DNA from: Escherichia phage Mu
Sequence record: NC_000929.1
Length of the DNA stretch: 36,717 nt
Reading direction: 5' to 3' (one strand)
A program made the translations under genes and the position numbers. Under the pieces are notes generated by a model. That model was not told the origin of the DNA. It saw only the letters and a list, made by a program, of their open reading frames with translations, and made no database searches. This document shows positions 1-36,602 of this stretch, piece by piece; the stretch's first letter is position 1, and every line of letters begins with the position of its first letter.

Positions 1-5
1 TGTAT

Positions 6-172
6 TGATTCACTTGAAGTACGAAAAAAACCGGGAGGACATTGGATTATTCGGGATCTGATGGGATTAGATTTGGTGGGGCTTGCAAGCCTGTAGTGCA
101 AATTTTAGTCGTTAATCAATGAAACGCGAAAGATAGTAAAAAATTGCTTTTGTTTCATTGAAAATACGAAAA
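6..172 (+). repeat. Left-end transposase binding sites L1 (6-27), L2 (111-132), L3 (151-172)
   Basis: Three direct copies of a ~22-bp motif ending in CGAAA(A/G): tgattcacttgaagtacgaaaa, gttaatcaatgaaacgcgaaag, tgtttcattgaaaatacgaaaa. Matches the known MuA end-site layout. Confidence 0.85.
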
Positions 173-338
173 ACAAAAACACTGCAAATCATTTCAATAA
201 CAGCTTCAAAAAACGTTCAAAACCGATAACAACCAAGCTGTCACCAAATGACTCATATCACAAATCAGCTTATGCCGTTTAGGTATGTTACATGTGTGAT
301 TATGTGAGGTGAAGTATGTTTTAGCTGGTTCATGGTTG

Positions 339-929
339 TTATACGGCTTTTTTTACCTCCTGTGGTTCCTGTGAAGGTACTACAACACTTTCCTGTTCAT
401 GAATCCCATACTTTGACAAAATCTCTTTGCGTTTTTCTTCAGGTAATGCATCTAGCATCATCAACGTCTGAATACTTTGCTGTGAAAATCCTATAAAGCT
501 GTAAAGTTTCTGTTCATTAAATACAAGAGGCATTAACGCCAACAACCCCCCTTTACTTAAAAGTTTCAGTGCCTTGCGTGCTTCATCTGGTTCCAGCTCT
601 TCAATCATATTGATTAAGGTTGTGGTTAATTTGTTTATCAGTTCCGAAGAATCCTGTTTCTCATTGGCTTGAGCACCAGTATCCGGTGTGGATAACCCCA
701 AGTGCGCAATAACTTGCTCTCGTTCTTTGGTGGGCATCGACATCACATCGTATTCAACAGCTTTCCCCCCCTTGACACCTTCCTTTTTTTGCTTCGTCCA
801 GCCTTGAACATTTGCTCGATAGTGAACACCAGCAACAGATCCAGGCATACCATCAGCAGCCATAATTTCTTGCGGCGAACACCAAATTGACTTTTCAGTA
901 TTATTCTTTTCTATAAAGTTACTTTTCAA
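339..929 (-). CDS. c: Repressor c (lysogeny repressor, 196 aa)
   Basis: 196-aa ORF beginning MKSNFIEKNNTEKSIW, divergent from ner across the operator region; I recognise it as the Mu repressor. The start codon as read here is TTG. Confidence 0.9.
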   Translation of the reverse strand: MKSNFIEKNNTEKSIWCSPQEIMAADGMPGSVAGVHYRANVQGWTKQKKEGVKGGKAVEYDVMSMPTKEREQVIAHLGLSTPDTGAQANEKQDSSELINKLTTTLINMIEELEPDEARKALKLLSKGGLLALMPLVFNEQKLYSFIGFSQQSIQTLMMLDALPEEKRKEILSKYGIHEQESVVVPSQEPQEVKKAV

Positions 930-1098
930 AATTTAAACTCCTTATTTATCAACGCGTTAATCAGTAATCAAAGGAATTTACCAAAAAGCAGCTTTACAAA
1001 AAGCTTTTCAGTAATTATCTTTTTAGTAAGCTAGCTAAGTTTTTACACTTAGTTAAATTGCTAACTTTATAGATTACAAAACTTAGGAGGGTTTTTAA
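930..1098. promoter_or_regulatory. Early operator/promoter region (Pe rightward, Pc leftward, operators O1-O3, IHF site, transposition enhancer)
   Basis: 169-bp AT-rich divergent intergenic region between c and ner, ending in the AGGAGG ribosome-binding site of ner. The functional assignment is from established Mu biology; individual operator boundaries were not resolved by eye. Confidence 0.7.
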
Positions 1099-1326
1099 AT
1101 GTGTTCCAACGAAAAGGCCCGTGATTGGCATCGTGCGGATGTGATTGCGGGACTTAAGAAAAGAAAGCTCTCTTTATCAGCTCTTTCCCGGCAGTTTGGT
1201 TATGCGCCAACTACATTAGCTAATGCGCTAGAACGACACTGGCCAAAGGGTGAGCAGATTATTGCTAACGCCTTAGAAACTAAACCGGAAGTAATCTGGC
1301 CTAGCCGATATCAAGCAGGTGAATAA
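1099..1326 (+). CDS. ner: Ner, small DNA-binding negative regulator of early transcription (75 aa)
   Basis: 75-aa ORF ([25 protein letters not shown]...) immediately downstream of the operator region with an AGGAGG RBS; recognised as Mu Ner. Confidence 0.92.
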
Positions 1327-1327
1327 C

Positions 1328-3319
1328 ATGGAACTTTGGGTATCACCGAAAGAGTGTGCGAATCTTCCTGGTTTGCCGAAAACATCGGCTGGTGTGATTT
1401 ATGTTGCTAAAAAGCAAGGATGGCAAAACCGCACTAGAGCAGGTGTCAAAGGTGGTAAAGCAATTGAATACAATGCGAACTCTTTACCTGTTGAAGCGAA
1501 AGCGGCGTTATTGCTGAGACAAGGAGAGATTGAAACAAGCCTGGGGTATTTTGAAATCGCCCGCCCCACGCTGGAAGCCCATGATTATGATCGTGAGGCA
1601 CTGTGGAGCAAATGGGATAACGCCAGCGATTCCCAGCGCAGACTTGCTGAAAAATGGTTGCCTGCGGTTCAGGCTGCAGACGAAATGCTGAACCAGGGGA
1701 TTTCAACGAAAACGGCTTTTGCGACCGTTGCAGGGCATTACCAGGTCAGCGCATCCACTTTGCGGGACAAGTATTACCAGGTACAGAAGTTTGCGAAGCC
1801 TGACTGGGCGGCTGCACTTGTTGATGGACGTGGAGCATCCCGTCGCAATGTTCACAAAAGTGAATTTGACGAGGATGCCTGGCAGTTTCTGATTGCAGAT
1901 TATCTGCGACCGGAAAAACCCGCTTTCCGCAAATGTTATGAGCGTCTGGAACTGGCAGCCCGCGAGCATGGCTGGAGTATTCCCTCCCGTGCCACGGCCT
2001 TTCGCCGGATTCAGCAACTGGACGAGGCAATGGTTGTTGCCTGTCGTGAAGGTGAACATGCACTGATGCATCTGATACCGGCACAGCAGCGAACTGTGGA
2101 ACACCTGGACGCCATGCAGTGGATCAACGGCGACGGTTATCTGCATAACGTCTTTGTACGCTGGTTTAACGGTGATGTGATCCGTCCGAAAACATGGTTC
2201 TGGCAGGATGTGAAAACCCGAAAAATTCTGGGCTGGCGCTGCGATGTGAGCGAGAACATTGATTCAATTCGCCTCTCGTTCATGGATGTTGTGACTCGCT
2301 ACGGTATCCCGGAGGATTTTCACATCACCATTGATAACACCCGTGGTGCTGCGAATAAATGGCTGACGGGAGGCGCGCCCAATCGCTACCGCTTTAAGGT
2401 AAAAGAGGACGATCCAAAAGGACTGTTTTTACTGATGGGGGCGAAAATGCACTGGACAAGCGTTGTTGCCGGTAAAGGCTGGGGCCAGGCAAAACCTGTT
2501 GAACGTGCTTTCGGTGTTGGTGGGCTTGAGGAATACGTTGATAAGCATCCGGCACTGGCTGGCGCATATACGGGGCCAAATCCGCAGGCAAAACCTGATA
2601 ACTATGGCGACCGCGCTGTTGATGCAGAGCTGTTTCTGAAAACCCTTGCCGAAGGTGTGGCGATGTTCAATGCCAGAACAGGCCGTGAAACAGAAATGTG
2701 CGGGGGCAAACTCTCGTTTGATGATGTTTTCGAGCGTGAATACGCCAGAACGATTGTGCGTAAGCCAACCGAAGAACAAAAACGGATGCTGTTACTGCCT
2801 GCCGAGGCGGTGAACGTTTCACGCAAAGGCGAGTTTACGCTTAAAGTTGGCGGCTCCCTTAAAGGCGCGAAAAACGTTTATTACAACATGGCATTAATGA
2901 ATGCCGGCGTGAAAAAAGTTGTGGTCAGGTTTGATCCGCAGCAGCTACACAGCACGGTTTATTGCTACACCCTGGACGGTCGGTTTATCTGTGAAGCGGA
3001 ATGTCTGGCACCTGTTGCATTTAATGATGCTGCGGCAGGCCGTGAATATCGCCGCCGCCAGAAACAACTGAAATCTGCGACGAAAGCAGCCATTAAGGCG
3101 CAGAAACAAATGGACGCGCTGGAAGTTGCTGAACTGCTGCCGCAGATAGCCGAACCAGCAGCACCAGAATCACGAATTGTTGGTATTTTCCGGCCTTCCG
3201 GTAATACGGAACGGGTGAAGAATCAGGAGCGTGATGATGAATACGAAACTGAGCGTGATGAATATCTGAATCATTCGCTGGATATTCTGGAACAGAACAG
3301 ACGTAAAAAAGCCATTTAA
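1328..3319 (+). CDS. A: Transposase MuA (DDE transposase, 663 aa)
   Basis: ATG at 1328 gives 663 aa beginning [18 protein letters not shown]; the ORF-track start at 1319 is a GTG just upstream. Size and sequence match MuA. Confidence 0.95.
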
Positions 3320-16092: not shown

Positions 16093-17392
16093 TCTGGCGT
16101 ATGCCGCGCGCCTCCCGCCAAAGGAGGCTGTCGCGTATTTCCGCGCCAAAGGCTACAACATCACCTGGAACTGGTACGAACAACTGGCAGACGCGCACGC
16201 CCGCGCCTTTACCGTTGCCAAAGCCACCCGGATGGATGTCCTGACCACAATCCGTGAGGAAGTGGAGCGGGCTGTCAGTGAAGGCATCACCCGTGAGGAA
16301 TTTACCCGCACACTGGCCCCCCGGCTGCAAAAACTCGGATGGTGGGGAAAACAAATCATCGTGGATGCAGAGGGAAACGCGAAGGAAATCGAACTGGGCA
16401 GTCCGCGTCGTCTGGCAACCATTTATAACGTCAATACCCGTACGGCGTATGGGGCAGGACGTTATGCGCAGATGATGAATACCGCCGATTTGTACCCGTA
16501 CTGGCAGTACGTTGCCGTTATGGATGGCAGAACACGCCCGGAACATGCGCGGCTGCACAATATGGTTTTCCAGTATGACGACATTTTCTGGCAGACGCAT
16601 TACCCGCCCAATGGCTGGAACTGCCGCTGTCGCGTCCGGGCGCTGTCTGCGGCCCGCATGAAAGAACTGGGGCTACAGGTCAGTTATGGTGCGTCATTCA
16701 TGAATACCCGCGAAGTGGATGCCGGTACGGATGAAAGCACCGGAGAGATTTTCCGCACATCGTCAACCACGTTTGACAACGGTCGGGTAAAAATGACGCC
16801 AGATGTGGGCTGGTCATATAACCCCGGTTCGGCGGCATTTGGTACGGATCAGGCACTGATTCGAAAACTGGTGGAAGTTCGTGACGCGCAGCTGCGTGAG
16901 CAGGTTGTTCAGACGCTGAATAACAGCCGGGAGCGTCAGCTTGCTTTTTCCCTCTGGCTTAAACGCCTGGCAGGATCACGTCAGACCGGTCATGAAATCC
17001 GGGCGCTGGGGTTTATGACGGGATCCGTGGCTGAAGCCGTATATCAGCGCACCGGGAATATGCCAGCCCGTCTGCTTGTAATGAACGGGAAAAGTCTGGC
17101 GACCACTGCTGATGCCGCCCTGAAACCGGAGGATTTACAGCGTCTGCCGTCGCTGATGGCAAAACCACAGGCGGTATTGTGGGACAGGGAGAACCACCAG
17201 TTGCTGTATGTTGTGGCAACCCGTGACGGCACGGCCCGGATTGTGGTCAGAACATCACAGACAGTCGGCAGGCAGAATGACCGGGCGGATGTGCTGGTCA
17301 GTATCAGCCGCGTATCTGCACAGTCGCTTGAAGCCGCGATTGCTGACGGGATGATTGACGTACTGGAGGGGCATGTGGAGGTGAATAAGTGA
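16073..17392 (+). CDS. F: Head morphogenesis / virion protein F (439 aa)
   Basis: ATG at 16073 overlaps the portal 3' end by 20 nt; the ORF-track start at 16037 is a GTG. Confidence 0.82.
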   Translation: MPQQTIDLAYAARLPPKEAVAYFRAKGYNITWNWYEQLADAHARAFTVAKATRMDVLTTIREEVERAVSEGITREEFTRTLAPRLQKLGWWGKQIIVDAEGNAKEIELGSPRRLATIYNVNTRTAYGAGRYAQMMNTADLYPYWQYVAVMDGRTRPEHARLHNMVFQYDDIFWQTHYPPNGWNCRCRVRALSAARMKELGLQVSYGASFMNTREVDAGTDESTGEIFRTSSTTFDNGRVKMTPDVGWSYNPGSAAFGTDQALIRKLVEVRDAQLREQVVQTLNNSRERQLAFSLWLKRLAGSRQTGHEIRALGFMTGSVAEAVYQRTGNMPARLLVMNGKSLATTADAALKPEDLQRLPSLMAKPQAVLWDRENHQLLYVVATRDGTARIVVRTSQTVGRQNDRADVLVSISRVSAQSLEAAIADGMIDVLEGHVEVNK

Positions 17393-17859
17393 GTCTTGAT
17401 ATGAACGTTGCCGTGGATGTGCGACGTATTCAGCTTGCGCTGGATGAACTGGGAACCGTCACACGTGACCGCGCCATTCCCCGAGTGATGGCTGCGGCGC
17501 TGCTGTCATCCACGGAACAGGCATTTGAACGGCAGGCAGACCCGGATACAGGGAAAGGCTGGGAAGCGTGGAGCGATTCGTGGCTGGCATGGCGTCAGGA
17601 TCATGGTTTTGTTCCGGGCAGTATCCTTACCCTGCATGGCGATCTGGCACGCAGTATTACCACCGATTATGGACAGGATTATGCCCTGATTGGTTCGCCA
17701 AAAATTTATGCTGCCATTCATCAGTGGGGCGGTACACCCGATATGGCACCCCGCCCGGCAGGCGTTCCTGCGCGTCCTTATATGGGGCTGGATAAGACCG
17801 GGGAACAGGAAATTTTTGATGCCATCAGAAAACGCGTCAGCGCCGCTCTGAGGCAATAA
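17389..17859 (+). CDS. G: Virion morphogenesis protein G (156 aa)
   Basis: GTG start at 17389 overlapping the F stop, with GGAGG 7 nt upstream; an alternative ATG lies at 17401. Confidence 0.78.
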   Translation: MSLDMNVAVDVRRIQLALDELGTVTRDRAIPRVMAAALLSSTEQAFERQADPDTGKGWEAWSDSWLAWRQDHGFVPGSILTLHGDLARSITTDYGQDYALIGSPKIYAAIHQWGGTPDMAPRPAGVPARPYMGLDKTGEQEIFDAIRKRVSAALRQ

Positions 17860-18055
17860 ACAGAATCAGGCATAAAATCAGCCGCACAGATTTTTTAAAA
17901 CGCGCCACGGGATTTTTAAACCGGTATTTAACGGTGTATGAATCCCGTTTTATCTTCCTTTCACTTTCTTTCTCCAGTACTCAAATAGCATAACCCCAGA
18001 TTTTCCCGCACCTCCCGCAAACTGACTGCTCACAAACCATGATGAGCAGCAGGAC
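17860..18055 (+). promoter_or_regulatory. G-I intergenic region: probable late promoter P_I and the central strong gyrase site
   Basis: 196-bp non-coding gap at the middle of the genome. Contains ATAACCCC (17990-17997) and CCCGCACCT (18005-18013), the same 9-mer as upstream of lys. The gyrase-site assignment is from recalled Mu biology (central site near 18 kb), not from sequence. Confidence 0.5.
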
Positions 18056-23551: not shown

Positions 23552-23986
23552 ATGGACGAAATGAATTTAGGTCCTGAAGCACAGGAACTGCATGACAGCA
23601 TTGTGGCAGAAATTCAGTCCGGCGTGCTGAAACTGAAAGACGGCCTGCCGTTCGGCACCGGTGACGAGACTGAAATGCAGTATGACGTGACGCTGCGTGA
23701 ACTGACCGCAGGCGATATGATTGATGCACAGGCGGCTGCTGAAAAGCTGGTAATGAGCAAGGAAGGTCCGGTGCTGGTCAGTTCCCCGTCCCGGATGGGA
23801 CTGGAAATGCTGCGCCGACAGATTGCCAGCGTGGGCTGCATCAAAGGCCCGTTGTCGATGGCGCTGATTCGTAAACTGTCTGTCGATGACTTCCAGCGTC
23901 TGTCGCTGGCCACAGAAATGTACGACATGGCTGTGGCGGCATCGCTGACACAAGAACGGGGGCGAGTGGCTGCGGTGCCGGAATGA
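23552..23986 (+). CDS. Y: Tail assembly chaperone Y (144 aa)
   Basis: Sits between the tube and tape-measure genes, the conserved chaperone position; GGGGAAAC upstream of the ATG. Confidence 0.78.
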   Translation: MDEMNLGPEAQELHDSIVAEIQSGVLKLKDGLPFGTGDETEMQYDVTLRELTAGDMIDAQAAAEKLVMSKEGPVLVSSPSRMGLEMLRRQIASVGCIKGPLSMALIRKLSVDDFQRLSLATEMYDMAVAASLTQERGRVAAVPE

Positions 23987-24116
23987 TATTGAGAAAGCGG
24001 CGACAGCGATTGGCGTTATTCTGAAAAGTGGCCCGGAATGGGCCTTGTCTCTCCCGCTGTCCCGCTTTTTCCGGCACTGCCAGCAGGCTAAAACCCTCTC
24101 TCAATATCACCGTTAA
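23949..24116 (+). other. Candidate frameshift-extension frame of the tail chaperone
   Basis: A stop-free frame of 55 codons overlaps the last 12 codons of Y and fills the Y-N gap, ending 15 nt before the N start codon. A GGGGG run at 23958-23962 lies inside the overlap. Translated by hand. Confidence 0.4.
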
Positions 24117-27695: not shown

Positions 27696-28827
27696 TACCG
27701 TCACACTGCGAGCGGATGGCAGGCTGTTTACCGGCTGGACGTCAGTCTCTGTCACCCGCTCGATTGAATCCGTAGCCGGATATTTTGAGCTGGGGGTGAA
27801 CGTGCCACCGGGCACGGATTTATCCGGGCTGGCTCCGGGGAAGAAGTTCACGCTGGAAATCGGGGGGCAGATTGTCTGCACCGGTTATATCGATTCACGG
27901 CGACGCCAGATGACCGCTGACAGTATGAAAATCACTGTCGCCGGACGTGACAAAACGGCTGACCTGATTGACTGTGCTGCCGTTTACAGTGGCGGACAGT
28001 GGAAAAACCGCACACTGGAGCAGATTGCGCGTGACCTGTGCGCTCCTTATGGCGTTACCGTTCGCTGGGAGCTTTCCGATAAGGAAAGTTCGGCAGCTTT
28101 TCCCGGCTTCACGCTGGACCATTCAGAAACCGTTTATGAGGCGCTGGTGCGTGCCTCCCGCGCACGCGGTGTACTGATGACCAGCAATGCCGCCGGAGAG
28201 CTGGTATTCAGCCGGGCTGCCAGCACAGCCACTGATGAGCTGGTTCTCGGAGAAAATCTGCTGACACTGGATTTTGAGGAAGACTTCCGCGACCGGTTCA
28301 GCGAATACACCGTCAAGGGGTATGCCCGCGCAAATGGTGCTGAGGGTGATGATATTGATGCGAAAAGTATCGTATCCCGGAAAGGGACCGCCACTGACAG
28401 TGATGTGACCCGTTACAGACCGATGATCATCATTGCTGACAGCAAGATTACGGCGAAGGATGCACAGGCCCGCGCCCTGCGTGAGCAACGCCGCAGACTG
28501 GCAAAATCCATCACCTTTGAGGCAGAAATTGACGGATGGACTCGCAAGGACGGGCAACTCTGGATGCCGAACCTGCTGGTCACTATTGATGCCTCGAAAT
28601 ATGCCATCAAAACCACGGAATTACTGGTCAGCAAAGTCACCCTGATACTGAATGACCAGGACGGGCTGAAAACCCGCGTCAGCCTTGCACCACGCGAAGG
28701 CTTTCTGGTGCCGGTTGAAAGCGACCGTAAAAACAGGAAAGGCGGCGACAGTAACGGCGGTATTGATGCGCTGGTTGAAGATTATTATCGCAGACACCCG
28801 GAGAAAACGCCGCCGTGGAAAGAGTAA
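27688..28827 (+). CDS. Q: Baseplate hub protein Q (379 aa)
   Basis: Overlaps the end of P; position within the baseplate gene block. Confidence 0.78.
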
Positions 28828-29408
28828 ATGATTCCGCCTTGAACCGCCTGCTGACGCCGCTGATGCGTCGTGTGCGCCTGATGCTTGCGCGCGCTGTTGT
28901 TAACGTGATTAACGACGGGCGAAAGGTTCAGAACCTGCAGGTCGGTCTGCTGGATGATGAGGAATCCGATGAAGTGGAGCGCCTGCAAAATTACGGGCAT
29001 TTCAGCGTTCCCCTGCCGGGCGCAGAGGCGCTGATTGCCTGTGTAGGCGCACAACGTGATCAGGGGATTGCTGTTGTGGTGGAAGACCGCCGCTACCGCC
29101 CGACAAATCTTGAACCGGGTGATGCAGGCATTTACCACCACGAGGGGCATCGTATCAGGCTGACAAAGGACGGACGCTGCATCATTACCTGTAAAACGGT
29201 TGAGGTTTACGCTGATGAAAGTATGACCGTTGACACACCCAGAACCACGTTTACCGGCGACGTTGAGATCCAGAAAGGTCTGGGCGTTAAAGGTAAAAGC
29301 CAGTTCGACAGCAATATTACTGCCCCGGATGCCATCATCAATGGCAAATCGACGGATAAGCATATCCACCGTGGCGACAGCGGCGGAACCACAGGGCCGA
29401 TGCAATGA
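28815..29408 (+). CDS. V: Baseplate central spike protein V (197 aa; alternative ATG start at 28863)
   Basis: GTG start at 28815 overlapping the Q 3' end; the first in-frame ATG is at 28863. Confidence 0.75.
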   Translation: MERVNDSALNRLLTPLMRRVRLMLARAVVNVINDGRKVQNLQVGLLDDEESDEVERLQNYGHFSVPLPGAEALIACVGAQRDQGIAVVVEDRRYRPTNLEPGDAGIYHHEGHRIRLTKDGRCIITCKTVEVYADESMTVDTPRTTFTGDVEIQKGLGVKGKSQFDSNITAPDAIINGKSTDKHIHRGDSGGTTGPMQ

Positions 29409-34066: not shown

Positions 34067-35037
34067 TTAAATACTCCCCGCGTTATACCACGTTCCATTA
34101 ATGCAATACTGAATTGGCCTTGCCTGAGTTGTATCAATTAATTCATCACGGTTTCCGTTAACTGAACCCGTAACGACATAACCTGACCTGTCAGACCAGC
34201 CGGGACCATTCCATGTCTGAACAGATGACAGACCGCCAAGACGAATACCTGTAATAAACCTTGAGTTACATTCTGCCTGCGTATATGCACCAACATCTCC
34301 CGCTGATGGCTTACGTGTTGTGGTGTAAATTTCTGACCAGTCAGCTTCGAATCCGTAACCATCACGCGCTGAACGATAAAAAATACCGCCGTTCCTGTAA
34401 TTCACACGGAACTGTACGGCAGGGCAACTCCCCGTATTCATATTGAAGTGGAGGATTAATGTCGATGCGCCACCAATATTTGCGTTATAGACCCCGCTAT
34501 TCCAGTTCCAGCCAACAGCTTTATCATTTCCGACAGTGCTTCCTGTTTGTCCTAAAGCAAATGCAGGCTGCTGGTTTTTCGTGTTGTAGTCTCGTCGCCA
34601 GCCAGGAGCATAAGCATCACCATGATTAATATAAGTGAATTGAGCGTTAGTGATTCCGCCGCCGCTGGACGTACTCGGCGTAGTAACGCGTATGGTCATT
34701 GCGCCGCGAGTGCCAATAACTTCCACCACAGCACCTGCAAGACAAATATTTCCGCAACCTGTATCTGTAATGACCTTATTGTTTGCATAAGCCCATGAGC
34801 CTTTGCACATCCAGTAAGGATGGTTAAATGCCCCCTGACTCTCCAGCCACGAAATAAATTGTGCGGTTGTCCAGACCTGACTATCGCCACCAATATTCAG
34901 CCATGCGCTATATGCGCGACAGGCCCCAATATTTTTGGTGAAGGTATCTTTTCCTGGAATATCTGCGCCGTTCTGGTTTTGCTGTAATGCGCCAGAAGCC
35001 TGATTTACCGTTTCCTGTAAACCGAGGTTTTGGATAA
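34067..35037 (-). CDS. S': Alternative tail-fibre variable part S' (promoterless here; fuses to the constant part of S after inversion)
   Basis: The minus-strand ORF shares the repeat-encoded [12 protein letters not shown] with S and then diverges. The ORF-track 5' extension beyond 35037 runs outside the G segment and is not expected to be translated. Confidence 0.8.
35004..35037 (+). repeat. Right 34-bp inverted repeat of the G segment (Gin recombination site)
   Basis: tttaccgtttcctgtaaaccgaggttttggataa, the reverse complement of 31954-31987. Confidence 0.9.
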
Positions 35038-35091
35038 TGGTCGATTTTGGCACGCATGGCATGATTGGCGCTTTTAAACAGGAGATCCAGA

Positions 35092-35673
35092 GTGCTGATT
35101 GGCTATGTAAGGGTATCAACAAATGACCAGAATACAGACCTGCAACGAAACGCTCTTGTTTGTGCAGGATGTGAACAAATATTTGAAGATAAATTAAGCG
35201 GAACAAGGACAGACCGACCGGGATTAAAACGCGCTTTAAAGCGCCTTCAAAAAGGTGACACACTGGTTGTCTGGAAACTGGATCGCCTCGGGCGAAGCAT
35301 GAAACATTTGATTTCTCTCGTAGGGGAATTACGAGAGCGAGGGATTAATTTTCGCAGTCTTACTGACAGTATTGATACGTCATCTCCAATGGGGCGTTTT
35401 TTCTTCCACGTTATGGGTGCCCTGGCTGAAATGGAACGAGAACTAATTATCGAGCGAACGATGGCTGGACTTGCTGCCGCCAGAAATAAAGGCCGTATTG
35501 GTGGGCGACCACCTAAACTAACCAAAGCGGAATGGGAGCAGGCCGGGCGTTTATTAGCACAAGGAATCCCCCGCAAGCAGGTTGCATTGATCTACGATGT
35601 GGCCCTGTCAACTCTGTATAAAAAACACCCCGCGAAACGAGCGCATATAGAAAACGACGATCGAATCAATTAA
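35092..35673 (+). CDS. gin: Gin, serine-recombinase DNA invertase (193 aa)
   Basis: GTG start at 35092 gives MLIGYVRVSTNDQNTDLQ with the catalytic-serine motif of resolvase/invertase enzymes and a C-terminal HTH; GGAG upstream. The ORF-track start at 35065 is a TTG. Confidence 0.92.
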   Translation: MLIGYVRVSTNDQNTDLQRNALVCAGCEQIFEDKLSGTRTDRPGLKRALKRLQKGDTLVVWKLDRLGRSMKHLISLVGELRERGINFRSLTDSIDTSSPMGRFFFHVMGALAEMERELIIERTMAGLAAARNKGRIGGRPPKLTKAEWEQAGRLLAQGIPRKQVALIYDVALSTLYKKHPAKRAHIENDDRIN

Positions 35674-35767: not shown

Positions 35768-35956
35768 ATGAAATCAATTCGCTGTAAAAACTGCAACAAA
35801 CTGTTATTTAAGGCGGATTCCTTTGATCACATTGAAATCAGGTGTCCGCGTTGCAAACGTCACATCATAATGCTGAATGCCTGCGAGCATCCCACGGAGA
35901 AACATTGTGGGAAAAGAGAAAAAATCACGCATTCTGACGAAACCGTGCGTTATTGA
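35768..35956 (+). CDS. com: Com, zinc-finger translational activator of mom (62 aa)
   Basis: [33 protein letters not shown] with two CxxC pairs; overlaps the 5' end of mom. Confidence 0.9.
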
Positions 35957-36602
35957 GTATGAAGGCCAGATTGTTGGCTATGGTTCAAAGGAGCTGCGCG
36001 TTGAAACCATATCCTGCTGGCTGGCCCGCACAATTATTCAGACAAAGCACTATTCCCGCCGTTTTGTGAATAACTCTTACCTTCACCTGGGGGTATTCAG
36101 CGGACGCGATCTGGTTGGCGTTCTCCAGTGGGGATATGCCCTTAACCCCAACTCAGGTCGTCGTGTCGTGCTTGAAACGGATAACCGGGGCTATATGGAG
36201 TTGAACCGCATGTGGCTACACGACGACATGCCCCGCAACTCTGAATCACGGGCCATCAGCTACGCGCTGAAAGTTATCAGATTACTGTATCCGTCAGTGG
36301 AGTGGGTTCAGTCCTTTGCAGATGAACGCTGCGGACGCGCAGGCGTTGTGTATCAGGCGTCGAATTTTGATTTTATTGGCAGTCATGAAAGTACGTTCTA
36401 CGAGCTGGATGGTGAGTGGTATCACGAGATAACGATGAACGCGATTAAGCGAGGTGGACAACGAGGCGTGTATTTACGGGCTAATAAAGAGCGTGCCGTG
36501 GTACACAAATTTAATCAGTATCGCTACATCAGATTCCTGAACAAACGAGCAAGGAAGCGGCTAAATACCAAACTATTCAAGGTTCAGCCATACCCTAAGT
36601 GA
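35877..36602 (+). CDS. mom: Mom, DNA adenine modification enzyme conferring anti-restriction (alternative GTG start at 35907)
   Basis: 241-aa ORF from the ATG at 35877, overlapping the 3' end of com by 80 nt; last gene before the right end. Which start is used is uncertain. Confidence 0.85.

Follow-up and report, generated by a model that had tools for sequence, protein, structure and literature searches.

The repressor gene c of phage Mu (339 to 929, minus strand; 591 nt, 196 aa) opens with a TTG codon at 929-927, which raises the questions of whether translation of the repressor indeed begins at this codon and whether non-ATG starts are a property of Mu regulators in particular. The analysis covered the whole stretch of 36,717 nucleotides in which the gene lies, referred to here as the window. 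Its length, its gene order and the matches to Mu proteins deposited in the PDB (repressor, gp45 and Gin) identify the window as the phage Mu genome. Bases 1 to 3000 are 99.9% identical to M64097.1 ("Bacteriophage Mu left end") and show 98.6% identity with Mu-like Yersinia phages. In a preliminary description of this DNA, four genes had been assigned non-ATG starts, namely c (TTG 929-927, minus strand), gin (GTG 35092), G (GTG 17389) and, tentatively, gp45 (GTG 28815). All four positions are right. A fifth gene, mom, was absent from that list and also starts with GTG.

Annotated starts were taken from two partial Mu records (M64097.1 and V01464.1) and from the annotated relatives vB_YpM_3, D108 and SfMu, whose starts were mapped onto the Mu sequence, while the relatives used for the start-codon comparisons of gin, G and gp45 were drawn from IMG/VR viral contigs. 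The Mu reference annotation lists c with 196 aa, G with 156 aa, gp45 with 197 aa, Gin with 193 aa and Mom with 231 aa, and does not differ from the starts derived here for c, G, gp45 and gin. The starts of G, gp45 and gin are placed at the GTG codons of Mu in vB_YpM_3, D108 and SfMu alike. Derived lengths and N-termini also agree with the PDB-deposited sequences of the Mu repressor, gp45 and Gin, which are depositors' constructs or database entries and do not prove independently where the natural protein begins. Each of the five non-ATG starts is preceded by a Shine-Dalgarno sequence, with spacers of about 4 to 11 nt and duplex energies of -6.6 to -13.6 kcal/mol. In c, G and gp45 no other possible start lies between the in-frame stop and the non-ATG codon, and for gin and mom the sole upstream candidates (TTG 35065 and ATG 35877, respectively) have no Shine-Dalgarno sequence. 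A literature search for N-terminal sequencing or mass-spectrometry data on c, Gin and G returned none. Taken jointly with the account of their translation given below, the TTG of c and the GTGs of G, gp45, gin and mom are very probably the true initiation codons. As such, the five starts are ordinary and already known, being part of the accepted Mu annotation.

Gene G (17389 to 17859, plus strand; 156 aa) encodes a protein of the Phage_tail_S family, for which no solved structure was found. Its GTG is the first codon past an in-frame TAA. It is preceded at a spacing of about 4 to 6 nt by the Shine-Dalgarno sequence GGAGGTGA, which together with the GTGA overlap spans 17378 to 17392 on the plus strand (stop codon TGA of F at 17390-17392; duplex energy -13.6 kcal/mol). 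In distant relatives of G (55-57% identical), ATG is found at the same codon in six out of six cases, and the alternative start Met5 is replaced by Leu or Ala in these six proteins.

The baseplate spike gene gp45 (28815 to 29408, plus strand; 197 aa) has its Shine-Dalgarno sequence GGAG at 28800 to 28803 on the same strand, with a spacer of 11 nt at the long end of the range and a duplex energy of -6.6 kcal/mol. The gene begins before P has ended, overlapping it by 13 nt (P stop at 28825-28827), and its GTG is replaced by ATG in two of the 19 gp45 relatives. Residues 3-197 of the 197 residues of gp45 are covered in the cryo-EM model of the virion baseplate (PDB 9KI1; PMC11915804, Table S2), so that neither the TTG at codon 9 nor the ATG at codon 17, both further downstream, can be the start. 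Two simple reasons for the use of GTG in these genes were considered and rejected. An overlap with F or P does not force the codon, since the G to A change at the start codon is synonymous in the upstream gene (AAG to AAA in F for G, CCG to CCA in P for gp45) and occurs naturally among the gp45 relatives. Nor does GTG track a low virion copy number: gp45 is present in three copies per virion, but so are gp42 and gp44, which start with ATG.

The DNA invertase gene gin (35092 to 35673, plus strand; 193 aa) has the Shine-Dalgarno sequence AGGAG at 35080 to 35084 on the same strand, with a 7-nt spacer. A promoter scan near gin gave no match. Its product carries the features of a serine DNA invertase, i.e. 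a Resolvase catalytic domain (PF00239, E=6.7e-50) with an N-terminal Ser in a YVRVS motif and a C-terminal HTH_7 domain (PF02796, E=2.4e-17). The crystal structures PDB 3UJ3 and 4M6F match Gin residues 1-193, and position 2 of the Pfam Resolvase profile aligns to Gin residue 3. Among 79 gin relatives from IMG/VR, 69 have ATG at the homologous codon, and these ATG-start invertases are 76-82% identical to Mu Gin. The Pin/Cin/Hin-type invertases of viral contigs have the N-terminus MLIGYVRVSTND, the Resolvase and HTH_7 architecture and a G-rich Shine-Dalgarno sequence at similar distance in common with Gin. They differ from it in the first codon, which is ATG in 69 of 69 cases, whereas GTG is confined to Mu-type gin (10 of 10 copies). 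An exchange of Val for Met that is restricted to the first codon is what is expected of a start codon.

The gene mom (35907 to 36602, plus strand; 231 aa, GTG start) is preceded by the Shine-Dalgarno sequence GGAG at 35896-35899 (plus strand, 7-nt spacer). Both the GTG and the GGAG are kept in 42 of the 42 relatives scored (85-99% identity). In the records of D108 and SfMu, mom begins at an upstream ATG, equivalent to position 35877 of the window. This start was rejected, since the ATG has no Shine-Dalgarno sequence and both the literature and the position of the GGAG favour GTG 35907; the start of mom is thus GUG, and Mom is probably annotated 10 residues too long in these two records. The GUG, named as the start in the literature, lies within a hairpin regulated by Com (PMC6483171). 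The Com-dependent translation of mom therefore provides another GUG start in the Mu genome that is used under translational control (PMC6483171), and it is the best-documented case of such control in this genome. More than the codon is at work in this case, as the control relies on Com itself and on the hairpin, by which the start region is masked.

Overlaps between stop and start codons are frequent in the window. Out of 49 same-strand junctions 21 overlap, comprising six ATGA, one GTGA (F/G), three TAATG, two TGATG and nine longer overlaps of 8 to 50 nt. Among the late-gene junctions the share is 16 of 27, which bears out the earlier statement that ATGA and TAATG overlaps occur across the late operons. 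Overlaps of 4 nt and 1 nt are more common than any other type in the operons of bacteria and phages. The overlaps seen in the sequence are consistent with translational coupling and fall short of proving it. Translation of G and gp45 is probably coupled to the upstream cistron, because both genes start within overlapping junctions (GTGA in F/G, 13 nt in P/gp45).

A census of the start codons in the window allows regulators to be compared with other genes. The 53 Mu genes comprise 48 ATG, four GTG and one TTG start, so that non-ATG codons account for 9.4% (5/53). In E. coli approximately 83% of the starts are AUG, 14% GUG and 3% UUG, and the corresponding values for well-annotated bacterial genomes are 81.8%, 13.8% and 4.35% (10.1101/063800). 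The non-ATG share in Mu is hence slightly below the background of about 17-18% (binomial P(X>=5)=0.97). Two of the seven clear regulators (c and gin) have non-ATG starts compared to three of the 46 other genes (Fisher p=0.12), and with a broader definition of regulators the p value for enrichment is 0.07. The preliminary description had presented non-ATG starts as a feature of several key regulators. This holds for c and gin, but not for G (Phage_tail_S, virion morphogenesis) or gp45 (spike), and in each of the regulatory genes ner, mor, C, com and gemA an ATG start is combined with a strong Shine-Dalgarno sequence. Non-ATG starts in Mu are not enriched as a class and are not specific to regulators; the choice of start codon carries no statistical signal of regulator-specific tuning, and the finding is of little consequence other than for correct annotation.

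In the reading preferred here, the Shine-Dalgarno sequence would position the ribosome at each of the five starts and the initiator tRNA would read the near-cognate GUG or UUG as fMet. The weaker codon probably lowers the translation of c, Gin and Mom somewhat, products that would be needed in small amounts, and G and gp45 probably owe their translation to ribosomes passed on from F and P by coupling. Weak starts are found in regulatory genes of E. coli, e.g. lacI (GTG) and infC (AUU), in which the weak codon presumably restricts or controls synthesis. Mu c and gin resemble lacI and infC in that a regulatory protein is made from a non-AUG codon; the infC codon, however, belongs to an IF3 feedback loop that has been demonstrated, while neither such a loop nor reporter data were found for c and gin. 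In E. coli reporters, GUG and UUG, read by the initiator tRNA, give 10-100% of the initiation obtained with AUG, and IF3 acts as the gatekeeper of initiation at these codons (10.1101/063800). Some drop in expression is plausible on account of this range.

It is also quite possible that the non-ATG codons are neutral, with ATG, GTG and TTG interchanging by drift wherever a good Shine-Dalgarno sequence or coupling is given. The range of initiation just cited is in line with neutrality, as are the lack of enrichment in Mu or its regulators, the synonymous nature of the change to ATG in the overlapping F and P and the ATG starts of gp42 and gp44 at the same copy number as gp45. Relatives of gin, G and gp45 in which this codon is ATG point in the same direction, and for this reason the weak codon cannot be regarded as a requirement conserved among them. 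Against neutrality stand c and mom. The TTG is kept in all copies of c of the Mu immunity type that were examined (89-100% identical), including variants of 89-91% identity in which the upstream operator DNA is different, and the GTG of mom is likewise retained in every relative scored, the most distant being 85% identical. As evidence of selection this carries little weight, since the sequences are mostly closely related.

A more specific form of selection, in which the combination of UUG with strong Shine-Dalgarno pairing is maintained in the Mu-immunity c lineage and makes repressor synthesis sensitive to IF3 or to the growth state, seems improbable. If it were true, the maintenance of lysogeny would be tied to the translation physiology of the host. 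The AAGGAG of c is kept with small variations in the variants that are 89-91% identical to Mu c, despite their different upstream (operator) DNA. In D108-type repressors the start is an ATG with a weak Shine-Dalgarno sequence (TAGGA, TGGGA or similar), as opposed to TTG with the strong AAGGAG in Mu-type c, and the two arrangements may be two routes to a modest initiation rate. In the D108-type repressor loci (L188-L201), the Shine-Dalgarno-like sequence (TAGGA/TGGGA) is located about 20 nt upstream of the start.

For c itself, initiation at TTG has to be weighed against the in-frame ATG at codon 23 (861 to 863, minus strand), the start used in old records. If c began at this ATG, the protein would have 174 aa and the TTG would have no meaning beyond being the first codon in the open frame that resembles a start, a reading that is very unlikely. 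The gene is annotated in this way (339..863) in M64097.1 and V01464.1, the c proteins of D108 and SfMu likewise have 174 aa, and the Pfam model HTH_Tnp_Mu_1 (PF02316, E=5e-54) begins exactly at Met23, covering residues 23-165 (435-863 of the window, minus strand). The ATG at 863, however, has no Shine-Dalgarno sequence at a usable distance, whereas AAGGAG (938 to 943, minus strand) is located 8 nt before the TTG and forms a duplex of -8.8 kcal/mol with the 16S 3' end. An in-frame TAA (935-933) is separated from the TTG by a single codon (ATT), so that the TTG is the second codon after the stop.

The protein sequence also argues for the longer form. The DNA-binding domain of the Mu repressor in PDB 1QPM and 1G4D spans residues 13-81, the constructs beginning at residue 13, and the homologous domain I-alpha of MuA aligns from c residue 14 onwards. 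Trp16 is invariant in an alignment of c with D108, SfMu, two other repressor types and MuA. A protein beginning at Met23 would lose this residue together with residues 13-22 of the solved domain, and the Met23 column itself holds Gly, Ala or Asn in the aligned homologues, not Met. The Pfam model seems to carry over the truncated annotation, because the solved domain and the invariant Trp16 begin upstream of Met23; its start at residue 23 thus probably reflects the older, shorter form of c. The 174-aa proteins of the D108 type do not correspond to a truncated Mu c either, as their own Met1 aligns near residue 8-9 of Mu c. These and other Mu-like repressors share the winged-helix N-terminal domain with the invariant Trp16 and start a few codons upstream of it; in other Mu-like immunity types, an ATG start lies 6-9 codons before Trp16 and not at the identical codon of Mu. 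A profile scan of genome contigs with the repressor alignment found no relatives.

Sequence variation between the two candidate codons points to translation of the intervening stretch. In Mu-type variants of 89-91% identity, the frame is uninterrupted from the TTG to ATG 863 and the substitutions within it are in-frame, with synonymous changes at codons 14 and 15. RefSeq gives the same 591-nt, 196-aa coding sequence in four E. coli prophages, and vB_YpM_3 also annotates the 196-aa form. A literature search found neither a published N-terminal sequence of the Mu repressor nor an explicit statement of a TTG or UUG start. The 196-aa form initiated at TTG is right and the 174-aa form initiated at ATG, still present in old GenBank records, is wrong.

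Just as unlikely is the production of two proteins, full-length c from the TTG and a truncated form from ATG 863 via an internal transcript, in which the latter, having lost part of the DNA-binding domain, would modulate repression: a sigma-70-like match (TTGAAA-18-AATAAT, 10/12) does lie at 929 to 900 on the minus strand, its -35 hexamer consisting of the TTG codon and the next codon, so that a transcript starting from it would not contain the TTG, but shuffled sequence of this AT-rich region gives 0.8 +/- 0.8 such matches (not significant), ATG 863 has no Shine-Dalgarno sequence, and no support for a second product was found in this analysis.

With the full-length repressor initiated at TTG as the reference, the window and the structures 1QPM and 1G4D are identical over residues 13-81 save for residue 47. 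Codon 47 (789-791, minus strand) encodes Gln in the window, where Arg is present in the two structures and in a variant of 91% identity with Mu c. We take Q47 to be the thermo-inducible cts62 allele (R47Q), in which case the sequenced phage would be Mu cts62. A literature search returned no paper naming cts62 together with R47Q.

Three further regions of the window are occupied by reading frames with unusual first codons. Two small extra ORFs of D108, "41.5" and "31.5", map to 23970-24116 and 17865-17993, where the first codons are CTG and ATC, respectively. The "41.5" region lies immediately before the tape-measure gene and overlaps gp41 at its end; "41.5" may be a frameshift product of a tail chaperone instead of an independent gene. 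The tail-fibre segment S' in the invertible G region (34067-34960, minus strand) lacks its own start codon, with ATT as the first codon mapped. This is consistent with expression of S' only after inversion has fused it to the constant part of S.
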